Source of the DNA: an uncultured Solibacteraceae bacterium
GTDB lineage: Bacteria; Acidobacteriota; Terriglobia; Bryobacterales; Bryobacteraceae
Reading direction: 5' to 3'
Assembly (NCBI GenBank): GCA_964413655.1
Contig: CAYPUQ010000119.1
Coordinates: 1 to 14,510 of the forward strand
DNA length: 14,510 nucleotides
Shown piece by piece: positions 5,253-11,224 of the stretch. The translations under genes and the position numbers were made by a program. The notes beneath the pieces were generated by a model, which was not told the DNA's origin, ran no database searches, and was given only the letters and a program-made list of their open reading frames with translations. Numbering within the stretch: the stretch's first letter is position 1; every line of letters begins with the position of its first letter.

Positions 5253-5945
5253 TTAGGAGCGCGGAGCGCCCGCGATCTCGTCGAGGATGCGTTCGATCTC
5301 GGCGGCCGGCGATTCGGCGCGCGTGACCTGCCGTCCGATCACCAGGTAGTTGGCTCCGCTCGCGATTGCCTCCGCCGGGGTGGCGACGCGCTTCTGGTCT
5401 CCCTTGCCCGCTCCGGCGGAACGTACGCCGGGCGTGACGAGGACGCATTCGGGTCCGGCGAGGGCGCGTACCGACTGCACTTCGAGCGGCGAGCAGACAA
5501 TGCCATCGACACCGGATTCGCGAGCCTTGCGCACCCGCAGTGCCACCAAGCTGCCGACCTCGCATGGGTAACCGAGGTCGCGGAGGTCGTCCTGATCGAA
5601 GCTCGTTAAGACCGTAACGGCCAGGAGTTGGAGTTCGGAACCGCCGCGGCCCTCGACGGCGGCGCGCATCACGGCGCCGCTGCCGTGGACGGTGAGAAAC
5701 CGGACGCCCGAGTCCGCGACCCGCCGGACCGCCCGTTTTACGGTTTCGGGGATGTCGTAGAACTTCATGTCAAGAAAGACCTGCTTGCCGCCGGCGATGA
5801 GTTCGCGGACGAATTCCATACCGGCGGCTGCGTACAGTTCCATCCCGACCTTGTAGAACGATGCCGCCGGTCCGATGGTCTGCACGAGCGCGCGAGCTTC
5901 GGCGGCGGAAGGAACGTCGAGCGCGATGATCAGCCGGTTGGTCAT
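5253..5945 (-). CDS. pyrF: Orotidine 5'-phosphate decarboxylase.
   Basis: From the internal ATG at 5943-5945 (M62 of track ORF 5253..6128): MTNRLIIALDVPS...FLDMKFYDIPETV (D-x-K-x-x-D motif) ...TPGVR...VIGR. Length about 230 aa. TAA stop at 5253-5255. The start overlaps the selD stop in an ATGA configuration (5942-5945). Confidence 0.9.
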   Translation of the reverse strand: MTNRLIIALDVPSAAEARALVQTIGPAASFYKVGMELYAAAGMEFVRELIAGGKQVFLDMKFYDIPETVKRAVRRVADSGVRFLTVHGSGAVMRAAVEGRGGSELQLLAVTVLTSFDQDDLRDLGYPCEVGSLVALRVRKARESGVDGIVCSPLEVQSVRALAGPECVLVTPGVRSAGAGKGDQKRVATPAEAIASGANYLVIGRQVTRAESPAAEIERILDEIAGAPRS

Positions 5946-6964
5946 ATCAGGATGATAGGCTTCTCGCCGGGCGGCCGGACGACGCCGATGGCGAAAGCCG
6001 CCGGGAACCGGCCCAGGAATTCGGCGGCGGACTCGGGCCGCATGGAAATCAGCAGCCCACCCGAGGTCTGAGGATCGTAGATCAGTTCCGCCACGGCGGG
6101 CGTGGGCGGCGATTCCACTTTGACGCACGGGCCCGCGAAATCGCGATTGTTCCGCAGGCCGCCCGGAATCGCCCCCGCTTCGGCGAGGCGCTCGGCGCCG
6201 GGCAGGAAACGGAGCGCGGCGGTCTGGATTTTGAGCGTTACGCCGCTGCCCAGGGCCATTTCGCGGGCGTGGCCAATGAGACCAAACCCGGTGACGTCGG
6301 TACAGCCGTGCGCATCGAGCCCTTCAAGCGCCTCGGCCGCGGACTTGTTCAGCGTCAACATGGATGCCACCGACGCGGCAACCTCCTCTTCCGTGGCCAG
6401 ACCACGCTTCAATCCGGTGGAAATGATGCCGGTCCCAAGCGGCTTGGTGAGCACGAGCGTATCACCGGGACGGGCGCCCGAGTTTGGCAGGAATCGCTCC
6501 GGATGCACCGTGCCCGTCACGGCATAACCAAACTTGATCTCGTCGTCCGAGACGCTGTGGCCGCCGAGGATAGCGCAACCGGCCTCACGCATCTTCTCGG
6601 CCCCGCCCCGCAGGATCTGCCGGAGGGTTTCGATATCTCCCTTGTTCGGGTAGCACACGAGCGAGAGGGCCGTGAGCGGCCGGCCGCCCATCGCATATAC
6701 GTCGCTCAGCGAGTTCGCCGCCGCGATCGCGCCGTAAGTGAATGGGTCGTCGACGATCGGAGTGAAAAAGTCGGTGGTCTGGACGAGGGCACACTCCGGG
6801 TTCAGCCGGTAGACACCGGCGTCGTCCGACGTATTAAAGCCGACCAGCACGTTCGGGTCGGCCGGACCGGCAAGCCCGTCCAAGACTTGGTCCAAGACCT
6901 TTGGACTCAGCTTGGAGGCTCAACCGGCGGCCTTCACGTGGGCCGTGAGTCTCTCCACGGACAT
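5942..6964 (-). CDS. selD: Selenide, water dikinase (selenophosphate synthetase) with an in-frame UGA at 6920-6922 read as selenocysteine.
   Basis: Track ORF 5942..6895 (TTG 'start') matches SelD from VDPNLLVG onward: VGFNTSDDAGVYRL, TTDFFTPIVDDPFTYG, GGHSV, DVTGFGLIGH. Track ORF 6920..7114 ends ..MSVERLTAHVKAAG at the TGA. Reading through gives MSVERLTAHVKAAG-U-ASKLSPKVLDQVL, which aligns to E. coli [30 protein letters not shown] with U at the essential Cys17. ATG at 6962-6964, TGA stop at 5942-5944, about 340 aa. Confidence 0.8.
6890..6906 (-). promoter_or_regulatory. Candidate bacterial SECIS hairpin downstream of the selD UGA.
   Basis: mRNA: UGA-GCCUCCAAGCUGA-GUCCAA-AGGUC-UUGGAC. This gives a 6-bp stem with a 5-nt loop containing GGU. 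The stem starts 13 nt after the UGA. The region also holds a near-perfect 12-nt tandem repeat (plus 6878-6889 gtccaagacttg and 6890-6901 gtccaagacctt), which could support alternative or extended pairings. Confidence 0.35.
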
Positions 6965-7025
6965 CAGATCCAGTGTAGCGTTGAAGGAATGGAGGCACGG
7001 ACATTTGGATAGGTACCTCGCCGTC

Positions 7026-7379
7026 ATGGCTGGGGCGGCGGCCGGCGGTCTGGCGCGGTACGTCATTGGACTGGCGGTGATGCAGCGCTTCGGTGGGCGG
7101 TTTCCGCTGGGCACGCTTGTGGTAAACGTGAGCGGATGCTTCCTGATCGGTGTCGTCGTAACGGTATTGGCCGAACGGTTGGACCTCCACCCGAACTGGC
7201 GCCTGCTGCTCGTGGTTGGAATCCTCGGCGGCTACACGACGTTTTCCAGCTTCGGCTACGAGACCTACCAAGCAGTTCGCGGCGGCGCCGCATGGGTGGG
7301 CTTGGCCAACGTTGTGGCGAGCGTCGTGCTAGGGTATGTGGCGGTGTGGCTGGGCATCGTGCTGACGGCCCGGCGATGA
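7026..7379 (+). CDS. crcB: Fluoride ion channel/exporter CrcB (FluC).
   Basis: ATG at 7026. MAGAAAGGLARYVIGLAV...GTLVVNVSGCFLIGVV...GGYTTFSSFGYE is the conserved CrcB signature (GG-TTFS-F). About 117 aa with 4 TM segments. TGA stop at 7377-7379. An alternative in-frame TTG at 7005 is possible. The start of track ORF 6912 would overlap the selD N-terminus and is rejected. Confidence 0.85.
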   Translation: MAGAAAGGLARYVIGLAVMQRFGGRFPLGTLVVNVSGCFLIGVVVTVLAERLDLHPNWRLLLVVGILGGYTTFSSFGYETYQAVRGGAAWVGLANVVASVVLGYVAVWLGIVLTARR

Positions 7380-8098
7380 AAGGAGACGGCGTGCTCGCAA
7401 CGGGCCCGGCGAAGAAAGTCACAATCTACGTCAACGAGGAGACGCGGTACGAGCACAGTCCGCTGTGGCTGGCGATCTTCGAGTATCTGCGCCACAAACA
7501 GGTAGCGGGAGTGACGGTAACGCAGTCCCGGCTCAGTTTGGGCGGGCAGGGAAAGGTCCACCACGGAGAAGCCGCCGAATCGGCCGAGTACTCCATGCGC
7601 GTGGAGTTCATCGAAACCGCAAGCAAGACCGAACAGTTGCTCCCGACGCTCTACGGAATGGTGGCGGACGGGTTGATCGAAGCTCAGGACACGACCATCG
7701 TCAAGGCGGCGCGTCCCGAGCGGGAGGGAAAGGAGGTCCGTTACGTGAAGGAAAGACGCGAAGGCCGCGGCAAAATGCTGCGCGTCTATCTCGGCGAGGA
7801 CGACCGGTGGGAGGGCGACCCGCTCCACGAAGCGATTGTCAACAAGCTGCGGATGATGGACATCGCCGGGGCGACCGTCTACCGCGGCATTCTTGGCTAC
7901 GGCGCAAAAGGCCAGACGCACAAGGAAGGGTTTTTTCACCTGTCGCGAGATCTGCCGCTGATGATTACGGTAGTGGACACGCCGGAAAAAGTAGAGACCG
8001 CGAAGGCGGCGGTGGAGGAGATGCTGGAGGACGGCCTGATCGTTGTATCGGACGTGGATCTAGTACGCGTGTACCGCCGGCCGGCGGCAACCGATTGA
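7376..8098 (+). CDS. Tandem-DUF190 protein (two PII-like DUF190 repeats), a CrcB-associated family.
   Basis: Internal ATG at 7376-7378 (M81 of track ORF 7136..8098) overlaps the crcB TGA as ATGA. Two homologous halves: KVTIYVNEETRYEHSPLWLAIFEYLRHKQVAGVTVTQSRLSLGGQGKVH and MLRVYLGEDDRWEGDPLHEAIVNKLRMMDIAGATVYRGILGYGAKGQTH. The upstream 80 codons of the track ORF are Arg/Pro-rich and overlap crcB. Confidence 0.8.
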   Translation: MKGDGVLATGPAKKVTIYVNEETRYEHSPLWLAIFEYLRHKQVAGVTVTQSRLSLGGQGKVHHGEAAESAEYSMRVEFIETASKTEQLLPTLYGMVADGLIEAQDTTIVKAARPEREGKEVRYVKERREGRGKMLRVYLGEDDRWEGDPLHEAIVNKLRMMDIAGATVYRGILGYGAKGQTHKEGFFHLSRDLPLMITVVDTPEKVETAKAAVEEMLEDGLIVVSDVDLVRVYRRPAATD

Positions 8099-8689: not shown

Positions 8690-10258
8690 ATGTTCGACAC
8701 ATTTTCGGGCGCGTGGCTGCCCGTTCTGGCGCTGGTGATTCTGCTGTCGCTGTTCATTGTGACGGCACTATTCAGCCGCAATTACCTGAAAGTTTCGCCC
8801 AACGTCGTGGCGGTATTAAGCGGCCGCAAACGGAAACTGGCCGATGGCCGGGCGGTCGGGTACCGCATGGTCCGCGGCGGCGCGGCGCTGCGCATTCCGC
8901 TTTTGGAGAAGGTGGACTACCTGGCGTTGAACGTCTTCACCATCCCATTGGAGATTCGCCGCGCCTACACGCTGCAAGGCGTTCCGGTGTCGGTTAAGGC
9001 GGTGGCGAACGTCAAGATCCGCGGCGATGAAGCGTCGCTGCACGCCGCCGCGGAGCGGTTTCTCGGCATGAAACAGGATGAGATCCAGCGCGTGATCTTC
9101 CAGACGCTGGAAGGCCACCTGCGGTCGATCCTCGGCACGCTGACGGTGGAGGAGGTGAACAGCGACCGCCAGAGCTTCGCGCAGAAACTGACCAGTGAAG
9201 CGGCGGTGGATCTCGAGAAGATGGGCATCGGCGTGGACGTGCTGACGATCCAGGAGATCAGCGACGAGGAAGACTACCTGAACGCGCTGGGCCGCCGCCG
9301 GACGGCCGAGGTGAAGCGCGACGCCATTATCGGCGAGGCAGAGGCGCAGCGGGATTCGAAGGTAAAGTCGGCCAGCGCGATGCAGGAGGGCGAACGCGCG
9401 AAGTATTCGGCCGACATCTCCATCGCCGGCGCGCAGCGCGACTTCGCCATGCGGCAAGCGCAGTACCAAGCCGAAGTCGAGATCGAAAAAGCAAAGGCGG
9501 CGCAGGCCGGACCGCTGGCCGAAGCACAGGCCCGGCAGGCAGTGGTGGCCGAAGAAGTCAAGGTCGAGCGGGTGCGGACGCAGGAATTGATTTCGGTGCA
9601 GGAGCAGGAGGTGCAGCGGCGGCAGCGCGAGCTCGAGGCCACCGTCATCAAGCCGGCCGACGCCGAGCGGCAAGCCGCCGTCGTGCGGGCCGAGGCGCAG
9701 AAGACGGCGGCGATTCTGGAAGCCGAAGGCCGCCGGTCGGCGCTGATCGCAATGGCCGAAGCCGAACAGGAGAAACTGCGCAAGGAAGGTATGGGACGAG
9801 CGGCAGCCGTCGAGGCGGAAGGGCGCGCCGAAGCGGCGAAGATCGAGGCGATCGGTATGGCCGAGGCGAAGGCGATCGAAGCGAAGGGTGTCGCCGAAGC
9901 CGCCGCGATTCTGAAGAAGGCCGAGGCGTGGAAGGAATTCAACGAAGCGGCGCGGTTGCAGACGATTCTTGAACGGCTGCCGTCGATTATCGAAGCCTCC
10001 AGTGGTGTATTCGGCGCGGTGGCGGCGCCGCTCGGCAACATCGATAAGGTGGTTGTGATCGACCAGGGCGGTGGCGGCAACGGCCAGAGTGGCATCACCC
10101 GGCTCGCCAATACAGGACCGGCGGTGGCGTTCAACCTGCTTCAACAGTTGGAGGCGCTGGGTTTGAACGTACCAGCCGTCATGGAACAACTCGGTCTGAA
10201 GAGCGGAAACGGCGCCAAACCCGTGGAGACGGCCCCGGGAACCGGCGCGACCGTCTGA
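8690..10258 (+). CDS. Flotillin-like SPFH/band-7 protein, 522 aa.
   Basis: ATG at 8690 with RBS GGGAGGAGG at 8675-8683. N-terminal TM segment, then an SPFH domain (ALNVFTIPLEIRRAYTLQGVPVSVKAVANVKI...). Long Ala/Glu-rich coiled-coil 'flotillin' repeats follow (EAEGRAEAAKIEAIGMAEAKAIEAKGVAEAAAIL). TGA stop at 10256-10258. Confidence 0.9.
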   Translation: MFDTFSGAWLPVLALVILLSLFIVTALFSRNYLKVSPNVVAVLSGRKRKLADGRAVGYRMVRGGAALRIPLLEKVDYLALNVFTIPLEIRRAYTLQGVPVSVKAVANVKIRGDEASLHAAAERFLGMKQDEIQRVIFQTLEGHLRSILGTLTVEEVNSDRQSFAQKLTSEAAVDLEKMGIGVDVLTIQEISDEEDYLNALGRRRTAEVKRDAIIGEAEAQRDSKVKSASAMQEGERAKYSADISIAGAQRDFAMRQAQYQAEVEIEKAKAAQAGPLAEAQARQAVVAEEVKVERVRTQELISVQEQEVQRRQRELEATVIKPADAERQAAVVRAEAQKTAAILEAEGRRSALIAMAEAEQEKLRKEGMGRAAAVEAEGRAEAAKIEAIGMAEAKAIEAKGVAEAAAILKKAEAWKEFNEAARLQTILERLPSIIEASSGVFGAVAAPLGNIDKVVVIDQGGGGNGQSGITRLANTGPAVAFNLLQQLEALGLNVPAVMEQLGLKSGNGAKPVETAPGTGATV

Positions 10259-10303
10259 GGCCGCCCGCGCCACGCCGGAGAGTCGTAGTCTGAAGATGTA
10301 GGA

Positions 10304-11224
10304 ATGCGAAGGCGCGACTTTCTCACAATGGCTGCCGGCGCCGCGGCGATGCGCGCGGCGATACCGGAAGGGACCGTGCTCGTTCACGAGCACGTCATGG
10401 TCGACTTCGTGGGAGCCGCCGGGATTGGACCCGGCCGTTACGATCCCGAAGAGGTTTTCGCTACCGCCCTCCCGAAGTTGGAGGAAGTGAAGGCGCTGGG
10501 ATGCCGGCGCCTGCTGGAGTGTACGCCGAACTTCCTCGGCCGGGATGCGGCGTTAATGCAGCGGCTCGCCGAGGCGTCGGGCCTGGAAATTTGGATTAAT
10601 ACGGGATTATATGCGGCGGCCGAGCACAAGTTTCTCCCGGAATTCGCGAAGGAAGAATCGCCGCATCAACTGGCAGAGCGGTGGATCAAGGAAACGCGCG
10701 ACGGCATCGACGGCGTTACCCCGAAGTTCATCAAGATCGGCGTGAACAAGGGGCCGCTTCATCGGTGGGACCGGAATATCGTGACAGCCGCGGCGCTGGC
10801 CGTGCGCGAAACGGGATTGACAGTGGCTTCGCACACCGGCGATGGGCGCGCGGCGATCGAGCAGATTGAGATCTTCGAATCGCTGCGGGTGAGCCCGGCC
10901 AAGTTCGTCTGGGTCCATGCGCAGAGCGAGAAGAACCACGACTTTCACGAGCAGGCGGCGCGCTCCGGCGCTTGGGTGGAGTTCGATGGCGTCCGCGAGC
11001 GGTCGGCGGACTGGCACCTGGACTGCGTCCGCTTCATGGCGAGCCGCGGGCTGCTCGGACAGACACTGATCTCCCAGGATTCGGGCTGGTATCGCGTGGG
11101 CGAACCCGGCGGCGGCGAGTACAACAGCTACACGTATCTATATACGGATTTCCTGCCGAGGCTGGAAGAAGCGTGGGTGACGCGGCTGATGCTGGAGAAC
11201 CCGGTGGAGGCGTTCGGGGATTAG
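10304..11224 (+). CDS. Phosphotriesterase (PTE) family amidohydrolase with an N-terminal twin-arginine (Tat) signal.
   Basis: ATG at 10304. MRRRDFLTMAAGAAAMRAA is an RR-x-FL Tat motif followed by an Ala-rich h-region. VLVHEHV (H-x-H metal ligands), KFIKIGV (the carboxylated-Lys position), VASHTGDG, VWVHAQSE and ISQDSGW (catalytic Asp) match the PTE/PHP family. 306 aa. TAG stop at 11222-11224. Confidence 0.85.
   Translation: MRRRDFLTMAAGAAAMRAAIPEGTVLVHEHVMVDFVGAAGIGPGRYDPEEVFATALPKLEEVKALGCRRLLECTPNFLGRDAALMQRLAEASGLEIWINTGLYAAAEHKFLPEFAKEESPHQLAERWIKETRDGIDGVTPKFIKIGVNKGPLHRWDRNIVTAAALAVRETGLTVASHTGDGRAAIEQIEIFESLRVSPAKFVWVHAQSEKNHDFHEQAARSGAWVEFDGVRERSADWHLDCVRFMASRGLLGQTLISQDSGWYRVGEPGGGEYNSYTYLYTDFLPRLEEAWVTRLMLENPVEAFGD

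Follow-up and report, generated by a model that had tools for sequence, protein, structure and literature searches.

The 14,510-nt window analyzed in this work, namely, positions 1 to 14,510 of contig CAYPUQ010000119.1 from an uncultured Solibacteraceae bacterium (assembly GCA_964413655.1), carries on its minus strand a selD gene in which a UGA codon takes the place of the codon for the catalytic cysteine (Cys). A 17-nt hairpin shortly downstream of this UGA, at positions 6906-6890 on the minus strand, is very probably (probability of about 0.9) the apical stem-loop of a bacterial selenocysteine insertion sequence (SECIS) located inside the selD coding sequence (CDS). The hairpin has a defined structure and position, is conserved, covaries and is associated exclusively with UGA in related selD genes. 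The element is an ordinary SECIS of an already known kind. The features on which this assignment is based are the following.

5942-6964, minus strand: selD (selenide, water dikinase) CDS, 340 codons plus stop, with the UGA read through at codon 15
6920-6922, minus strand: selenocysteine (Sec)-encoding UGA (codon 15); the homologous codon of Cys-type SelD specifies the catalytic Cys; TGA in 132 of the 161 loci and TGC or TGT in the remaining 29
6890-6906, minus strand: apical hairpin of the SECIS, RNA nt 17-33 (nt 1 is the U of the UGA); identified by minimum free energy (MFE) fold, pair probability, RNAalifold, covariation, Sec/Cys contrast, and fixation of rare codons
6906-6901, minus strand: 5' arm of the hairpin, GUCCAA
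6900-6896, minus strand: loop of the hairpin, AGGUC
6895-6890, minus strand: 3' arm of the hairpin, UUGGAC

The selD gene and its UGA codon

The selD reading frame runs from an ATG at 6964-6962 to a TGA stop at 5942 and has the sequence MSVERLTAHVKAAG-UGA-ASKLSPKVLDQVLDG..., with the local context KAAG-U-ASKLSPKVLDQVLDG. With Cys placed at the UGA, its translation matched the NCBIfam equivalog TIGR00476 with 373.6 bits (cutoff of 125) and NF002098 with 325.5 bits (cutoff of 299), and the product contains the Pfam domains AIRS and AIRS_C. TGA serves as an ordinary stop in five of the eight open reading frames (ORFs) of the window that were examined, the stop of selD itself included, so that the UGA at codon 15 calls for local recoding and not for a reassigned code. 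A crude scan of the window for further read-through ORFs yielded nothing but off-frame ORFs of the kind expected in GC-rich DNA, and selD itself did not pass its filter.

The public databases hold this gene as protein P0001 (313 amino acids; sources NCBI and Logan), which starts at an internal TTG at 6883 and spans 5942-6883 on the minus strand. P0001 is devoid of the first 27 residues, and the selenocysteine is among those lost. The same truncation was found in other short homologs, namely, P0002-P0005 and P0031 (307-317 amino acids). The start of P0001 would agree with a scenario in which the TGA is a true stop or the lesion of a pseudogene, and a truncated SelD is made from the TTG at 6883. 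However, the 14 codons that precede the TGA are in frame, are conserved at the protein level (LTAHVKAAG), show synonymous variation across 132 loci and are homologous to the N terminus of Cys-type SelD, with which the selD N terminus can be aligned over full-length proteins. The truncated product would also be without both the Sec/Cys position and the conserved stretch G-U/C-x-x-K that directly follows. This scenario has virtually no chance of being correct. The public selD gene call is truncated, and the 340-residue selenoprotein should replace P0001.

Structure of the hairpin and its chance expectation

A preliminary description of this DNA had noted a UGA followed 13 nt later by a hairpin with a 6-bp stem and GGU in its loop, as well as a tandem 12-mer in the same stretch. 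All of these are present, on the minus strand. The distance between the UGA and the stem is exactly 13 nt, and the 17-mer RNA (GUCCAAAGGUCUUGGAC) has a base-pair probability of 0.97. The same description had proposed folding the RNA downstream of the UGA, and the MFE structure of the 63-nt RNA starting at the UGA does contain the hairpin; it has an energy of -28.9 kcal/mol and a z-score of -3.08, and 0 of 200 shuffled sequences were equally stable.

Short hairpins of this type are not rare, and 74 perfect 6-bp hairpins with loops of 3-8 nt were counted on the two strands of the window, which corresponds to a P of ~0.045 for one of them starting in the appropriate 18-nt span. Such a hairpin follows 9 of the 329 TGA triplets in the window. 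Taken by itself, in this one sequence, the hairpin is of marginal significance against chance, and since it is barely beyond what chance would provide, the case depends on the comparison with other genes.

Conservation of the hairpin in Sec-type and Cys-type selD genes

The comparison comprised 161 selD loci with the homologous region intact, from Bryobacterales and allies. Eighty of these were taken from one-genome-per-species contigs, mostly of Bryobacterales, Solibacteraceae, and Paludibaculum, with 62-69% protein identity, and 78 came from a set of 80 metagenome loci found by a Cys-type query, of which L116 and L120 were left out as the region was lacking. The remaining loci are two contigs of closer relatives and the window itself. 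Three additional contigs, L163-L165, were used solely in the alignment of nearest relatives and are outside the 161. The codon homologous to the UGA is TGA in 132 of the 161 loci, here termed Sec-type, and TGC or TGT in 29, termed Cys-type.

A clear difference emerges between the two types. All six stem pairs are complete in 130 of the 132 Sec-types versus 1 of the 29 Cys-types. The Sec-type selD of the close isolate Paludibaculum fermentans (L008) likewise carries this hairpin. The preliminary description had suggested beforehand comparing orthologs for retention of the hairpin and for covariation, and it was borne out on both counts. The mean local MFE is -8.0 kcal/mol for Sec-types and -3.0 kcal/mol for Cys-types (Mann-Whitney p = 8e-17; p = 3e-14 when only distinct sequences are considered). 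A neighbor-joining tree was calculated from the protein without its first 14 codons, that is, with the tested region excluded, and at least 12 switches between Sec and Cys were identified on it, so that the contrast does not reflect a single ancestral split. Fitch reconstruction placed Sec at the midpoint root, again with at least 12 switches, and for each Cys-type, the closest Sec-type relative shows the hairpin with 6/6 pairs.

Cys-types, among them L077/L093, L145, L149, and L155, carry relics of the hairpin. Four to five of the six pairs are left in 19 of the 29, and L081 is a Cys-type in which all six have been retained. The Ser codon AGU is found in 15 of 26 Cys-types versus a background of 7%. 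These relics are consistent with repeated Sec-to-Cys conversion, with the SECIS decaying afterwards.

Codon constraint and covariation in the stem

Because the element sits within the reading frame, the rare codons AGU, CCA, and UUG have become fixed in it. At the stem positions of the Sec-types, Ser is encoded by AGU in 127 of 129 cases (background of 4.3% in the same genes), Pro by CCA in 119 of 132 (7.3%), and Leu by UUG in 112 of 132 (12.6%), whereas in the same genes the codons for Leu, Lys, Val, and Ala next to these positions are free to vary. Lys is AAG in 98/98 and Asp is GAC in 129/131. The Cys-types use CCC/CCG, CUG/CUC, and GAU at the stem, and the 12 Sec-types with CCG belong to lineages that also use CUG. 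When the codons of the hairpin were randomized synonymously, a z-score of -1.74 was obtained for Sec-types versus -0.12 for Cys-types.

The 129 distinct Sec-type sequences could be aligned without gaps, and this alignment served both for the analysis of covariation and for the RNAalifold consensus. At pair 22-28, 111 sequences have A-U and 16 have G-C, pair 23-27 is A-U in 49, C-G in 17, and G-U in 10, and pair 18-32 is U-A in 127 and C-G in 1 (L071, where the change came about via amino acid replacements). Thirty-five double-change cells were observed versus 9.1 expected, and 0 of 500 shuffles reached 35. Paired cells account for 93.9%, compared with 16-61% when the partner was slid. The RNAalifold consensus consists precisely of nt 17-22 paired with nt 28-33 and contains no other pairs.

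These data bear on the view that the inverted repeat has no RNA function and simply results from a conserved peptide (SPKVLD), codon bias, or shared ancestry. The peptide ASKLSPK(V/L)LD is indeed highly conserved, four of the seven stem pairs tested are invariant or vary on one side only, and the relatedness of the sequences causes shuffle controls to overstate significance. However, Cys-types with a near-identical peptide use other codons and have lost the hairpin, the fixed codons are rare ones (background of 4-13%) next to codons for the same amino acids that vary freely, and the association recurs over at least 12 independent Sec/Cys switches; true compensatory changes exist as well. This view is largely refuted, and very little likelihood can be attached to it.

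Relation to known SECIS elements

Bacterial SECIS (bSECIS) elements in Sec-type SelD genes have already been reported by Mariotti et al. 2015 (PMC4561486, Suppl. Fig. SM6.1). In the bSECIS model of bSECISearch (Zhang and Gladyshev), as summarized in Fig. 2 of PMC13188914, the loop has 3-9 nt and the stem 4-16 bp, one of the first two loop nucleotides is a G, mostly with G or U after it, the UGA-loop distance is 16-37 nt, and the MFE is -7.5 kcal/mol or lower. These published values were applied by hand. The window has a loop of 5 nt, a stem of 6 bp, a G at loop position 2 followed by another G, and a spacing of 19 nt, and is in agreement with the model in these four respects; a resemblance in position and loop content had already been noted in the preliminary description. 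For loop, stem, loop G, and spacing taken together, the same agreement was found in 130 of the 132 Sec-types. The relatives have loops of 3-5 nt and stems of 6-7 bp, and the 19-nt spacing occurs in all aligned loci. As in the bSECIS model and in Sec-type SelD, the stem-loop is located in the CDS of a known selenoprotein family, directly 3' of a Sec UGA at a Sec/Cys position. Itoh et al. (PMC4605307) describe a stem of 6-8 bp and a conserved G ~20 nt downstream of the UGA, which is matched by G24 and G25 of the window loop, 21-22 nt past the UGA.

Another point of reference is the SECIS of Escherichia coli fdhF, which has a 17-nt upper stem-loop (nt 15-31) at 11 nt from the UGA, a bulged U17, and the loop nucleotides G23/U24 (PMC8659212). 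The apical element of the window likewise has 17 nt, and its loop contains G-U (G25-U26 versus G23/U24 of fdhF). The helix extends down to the UGA as in fdhF, but in the window only, since the lower helix is not conserved in relatives. Unlike in fdhF, the window hairpin is shifted 2 nt away from the UGA in the downstream direction (nt 17-33, with 13 nt in between). The loop tetranucleotide of fdhF is GGUC, as in the window loop.

Several observations weigh against the identification as a SECIS. Two Sec-types, L112 (loop CAU) and L159 (loop UUUG), have no G at the first two loop positions. The apical hairpin alone has an energy of -5.7 to -6.9 kcal/mol and is thus slightly weaker than the -7.5 kcal/mol cutoff given in the PMC13188914 summary. 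Only the span of nt 1-51, which includes the window-specific extended helix, passes this cutoff (-23.8 kcal/mol), and the span to which the cutoff refers is ambiguous in that summary. The 5' arm lacks the bulged U of fdhF, and the 6-bp stem is perfect in the window as well as in the consensus. No Rfam match was obtained for the whole window at the gathering threshold or for positions 6780-7000 at E values up to 10, where only noise on the wrong strand or from unrelated families appeared. Furthermore, the 14.5-kb contig contains no selA, selB, or tRNA-Sec, and a scan of 60 related loci did not reveal any of them at distances of up to 3 kb from selD; no tRNA of any kind turned up in either. As size and loop G-U are the same as in fdhF but the position is shifted by 2 nt and the bulge is missing, the general bacterial model fits, whereas the fdhF subtype does not.

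The established model of SelB and SECIS is that of E. coli and Moorella. By analogy, a ribosome arriving at the UGA of codon 15 would have the hairpin at its mRNA entrance. The C-terminal winged-helix domains of SelB, in complex with GTP and Sec-tRNA(Sec), would then bind the G/U nucleotides of the loop, and SelB would deliver Sec to the UGA in the A site in competition with release factor 2. The product would be a full-length SelD in which Sec replaces the catalytic Cys. The trans-acting Sec machinery is assumed in this model.

Loop sequence and 5' context

The loop is under constraint in addition to the stem. It contains GU in 122 of the 132 Sec-types versus 6 of the 29 Cys-types, and a G at one of loop positions 1-3 in all 132 Sec-types. 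This constraint appears to be reflected in the protein. At codon +8 after the UGA (codons +7/+8 correspond to window positions 6896-6901 on the minus strand), Ile is found in 11 of 132 Sec-types versus 19 of 29 Cys-types (Fisher p = 2e-10). The dipeptide K-I, which entails the loop AGAUU without GG or GU, is present in 12 of the 29 Cys-types and in none of the 132 Sec-types. Where Sec-types do carry Ile, a Ser or Arg partner brings back GU or GG in 10 of 11 cases, the exception being L112 (AGC-AUC). The hairpin appears to restrict the choice of amino acids in the loop, in that V or L is used, and K-I never.

The loop also helps to judge whether the hairpin might by itself promote read-through or pausing at the UGA, in the manner of the eukaryotic SRE/HRE stem-loops, instead of being a SelB-binding SECIS. 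According to PMC4561486, stem-loops by the UGA in SPS genes can stimulate Sec-independent read-through, and those of SPS2 and SPS1-UGA adjoin the homologous UGA in the same gene family, work alongside or without a SECIS in the 3' untranslated region and may overlap the UGA. It is also in line with such a role that no selB was seen on the available DNA, SelB binding being proposed by analogy. In contrast to SRE/HRE, the conserved element of the window is located downstream only and has a bacterial loop signature. The loop constraints (G in 132/132, GU in 122/132, avoidance of K-I) match the pattern of SelB contacts in the bSECIS model, the spacing is 19 nt in all loci, and SelD would be inactive with any catalytic residue but Sec or Cys. 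An SRE/HRE-like role is therefore considered very unlikely compared with that of a SECIS.

A further conserved feature is located on the other side of the UGA.

6923-6925, minus strand: Gly codon GGU directly 5' of the UGA; GGT in 131 of 132 Sec-types and 0 of 29 Cys-types; background of GGT among Gly codons of 8.9%

At the position of this GGU, Cys-types use the Gly codons GGC, GGA, or GGG. Residue -2 (region of window positions 6923-6928, minus strand) is Ala in Sec-types and mostly Gly in Cys-types. Judging from these sequences, the pattern suggests a constrained 5' context that is outside the bSECIS model. We tentatively propose, at somewhat less than even odds, that the recoding signal of selD in this clade is larger than the textbook hairpin and also comprises a fixed 5' GGU with a switch at residue -2 and amino acids dictated by the loop. 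If this is true, bacterial Sec decoding would functionally involve a conserved 5' nucleotide context, which current bSECIS models leave out.

The 12-mer repeat and the lower stem

Two features of the window that surround or overlap the hairpin differ from it in their conservation.

6878-6901, minus strand: two adjacent 12-mers, 10/12 identical, RNA AAGGUCUUGGAC / CAAGUCUUGGAC; the first contains the loop and the 3' arm
6872-6921, minus strand: extended helix, nt 2-14 with nt 36-51 around the apical hairpin, reaching into the UGA; predicted, for this sequence only

On the plus strand, the 12-mers read gtccaagacttg (6878-6889) and gtccaagacctt (6890-6901), and they encode (K)VLD / QVLD. The second 12-mer provides the 3' strand of the window-specific lower stem, in which it is paired with UCCAAG at nt 7-12 (pairs 7-12 with 39-44, predicted P = 0.93). 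The sequence of the hairpin region, repeat included, is identical in the two independent assemblies L163 and L164, so that the repeat region is not an assembly artifact.

The preliminary description had regarded this repeat as a 12-nt tandem duplication that may have given rise to the recoding element and allows the RNA to switch between alternative registers. Adjacent 12-mers of at least 10/12 identity are in fact rare, being found at 6 of the 14,510 window positions, and base pairing between the second copy and the 5' arm is conceivable. The comparison, however, contradicts both parts of this claim. No length difference in the region, 12-nt insertions or deletions included, exists among the 161 loci, Cys-types among them, and the number of codons from U/C to NVLVGF is equal in Cys-types. 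In the two nearest relatives (83-84% protein identity), CAGGTGCTGGAG (CAGGUGCUGGAG) takes the place of the CAAGUCUUGGAC of the window, which amounts to four substitutions and no insertion or deletion. The identity of the two 12-mers is 6-7/12 in most homologs and reaches 10/12 only in the window and in L158. The 6-7/12 is due to the conserved peptide periodicity K-V-L-D / x-V-L-x, and a VL-x-x-VL periodicity is found in Cys-type SelD as well. As the hairpin is common to all Sec-type lineages and the second copy is confined to the lineage of the window, the hairpin long predates the repeat, and an origin by duplication fails. For a helix between the 5' arm and the second copy, P was near 0 in four sequence contexts, versus 0.97 for the hairpin. 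The duplication is refuted both as origin and as a basis of register switching, and we give it hardly any credence. The repeat is a lineage-specific coincidence of point mutations and does not belong to the conserved element. Four point substitutions in this lineage gave the next VLD-coding stretch its similarity to the 3' arm, and the predicted lengthening of the helix by pairing with UCCAAG is fortuitous.

As an addition to the SECIS reading, selection might have favored the substitutions in the second 12-mer for lengthening the SECIS helix as far as the UGA and tuning the efficiency of Sec insertion. All four differences from the nearest relatives raise the pairing with UCCAAG (nt 7-12; P = 0.93), and in E. 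coli the unpairing of the lower helix is reported to cut read-through by ~25% (PMC8659212). On the other hand, 14% of synonymous-codon controls were as stable as the window (z = -1.19), the mean z of the flank is -0.28 in Sec-types and thus near the -0.20 of Cys-types, and the lower-stem pairs of the window are unpaired in 60-75% of homologs. Such tuning is unlikely, if clearly less so than the alternatives to a SECIS discussed above.

Gene neighborhood and a distant clade

The end of selD overlaps by 4 nt with pyrF (orotidine-5'-phosphate decarboxylase; 5253-5945, minus strand; NF001273, 268.7 bits), and the selD-OMPdecase order is shared with L161 and L162. A crcB fluoride-channel gene, divergent from selD, and then a tandem-DUF190 gene are located at window positions ~7026-8098 on the plus strand. 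At the gathering threshold, neither a fluoride riboswitch nor any other Rfam family was detected in the window, the 60 nt between the divergent crcB and selD genes included. Genes of the Band7/flotillin and phosphotriesterase families are found near selD (8690-11224, plus strand) and also adjoin selD in L162 (positions 1-2858), a 72% relative in which an NfeD-like gene is present as well. As the Band7/flotillin and phosphotriesterase genes are shared with L162, local synteny is conserved.

In 15 distant Sec-types (L122, L124, L126, L131, L132, L134, L139, L141, L143, L146, L148, L150, L151, L156, and L160), a block of 26 nt just past the SECIS hairpin (GUGCUUGGGAAAUUAGCCCGGCAACA; within RNA nt 36-62 after the UGA) does not vary at any synonymous site, even though it includes the rare codons AAA and UUA. 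The RNA of this block is predicted to form a second hairpin (GCU-GGG / AAAUUAG / CCC-GGC); it is absent from the window, and the block offers no variation for an analysis of covariation.

Implications

For the field, the finding of a SECIS in this gene is confirmatory and not surprising. Nevertheless, the comparison of 132 Sec-type with 29 Cys-type genes, between which at least 12 switches have occurred, amounts to an unusually clean natural experiment. Within this sample, an RNA element forces rare codons, and probably amino acid choices, on a conserved protein segment and decays after the change of UGA to UGC or UGU. The practical value of the finding is in annotation. Once the UGA and the hairpin are recognized, SelD is again full-length and catalytically complete, and the organism can be identified as a user of selenocysteine.

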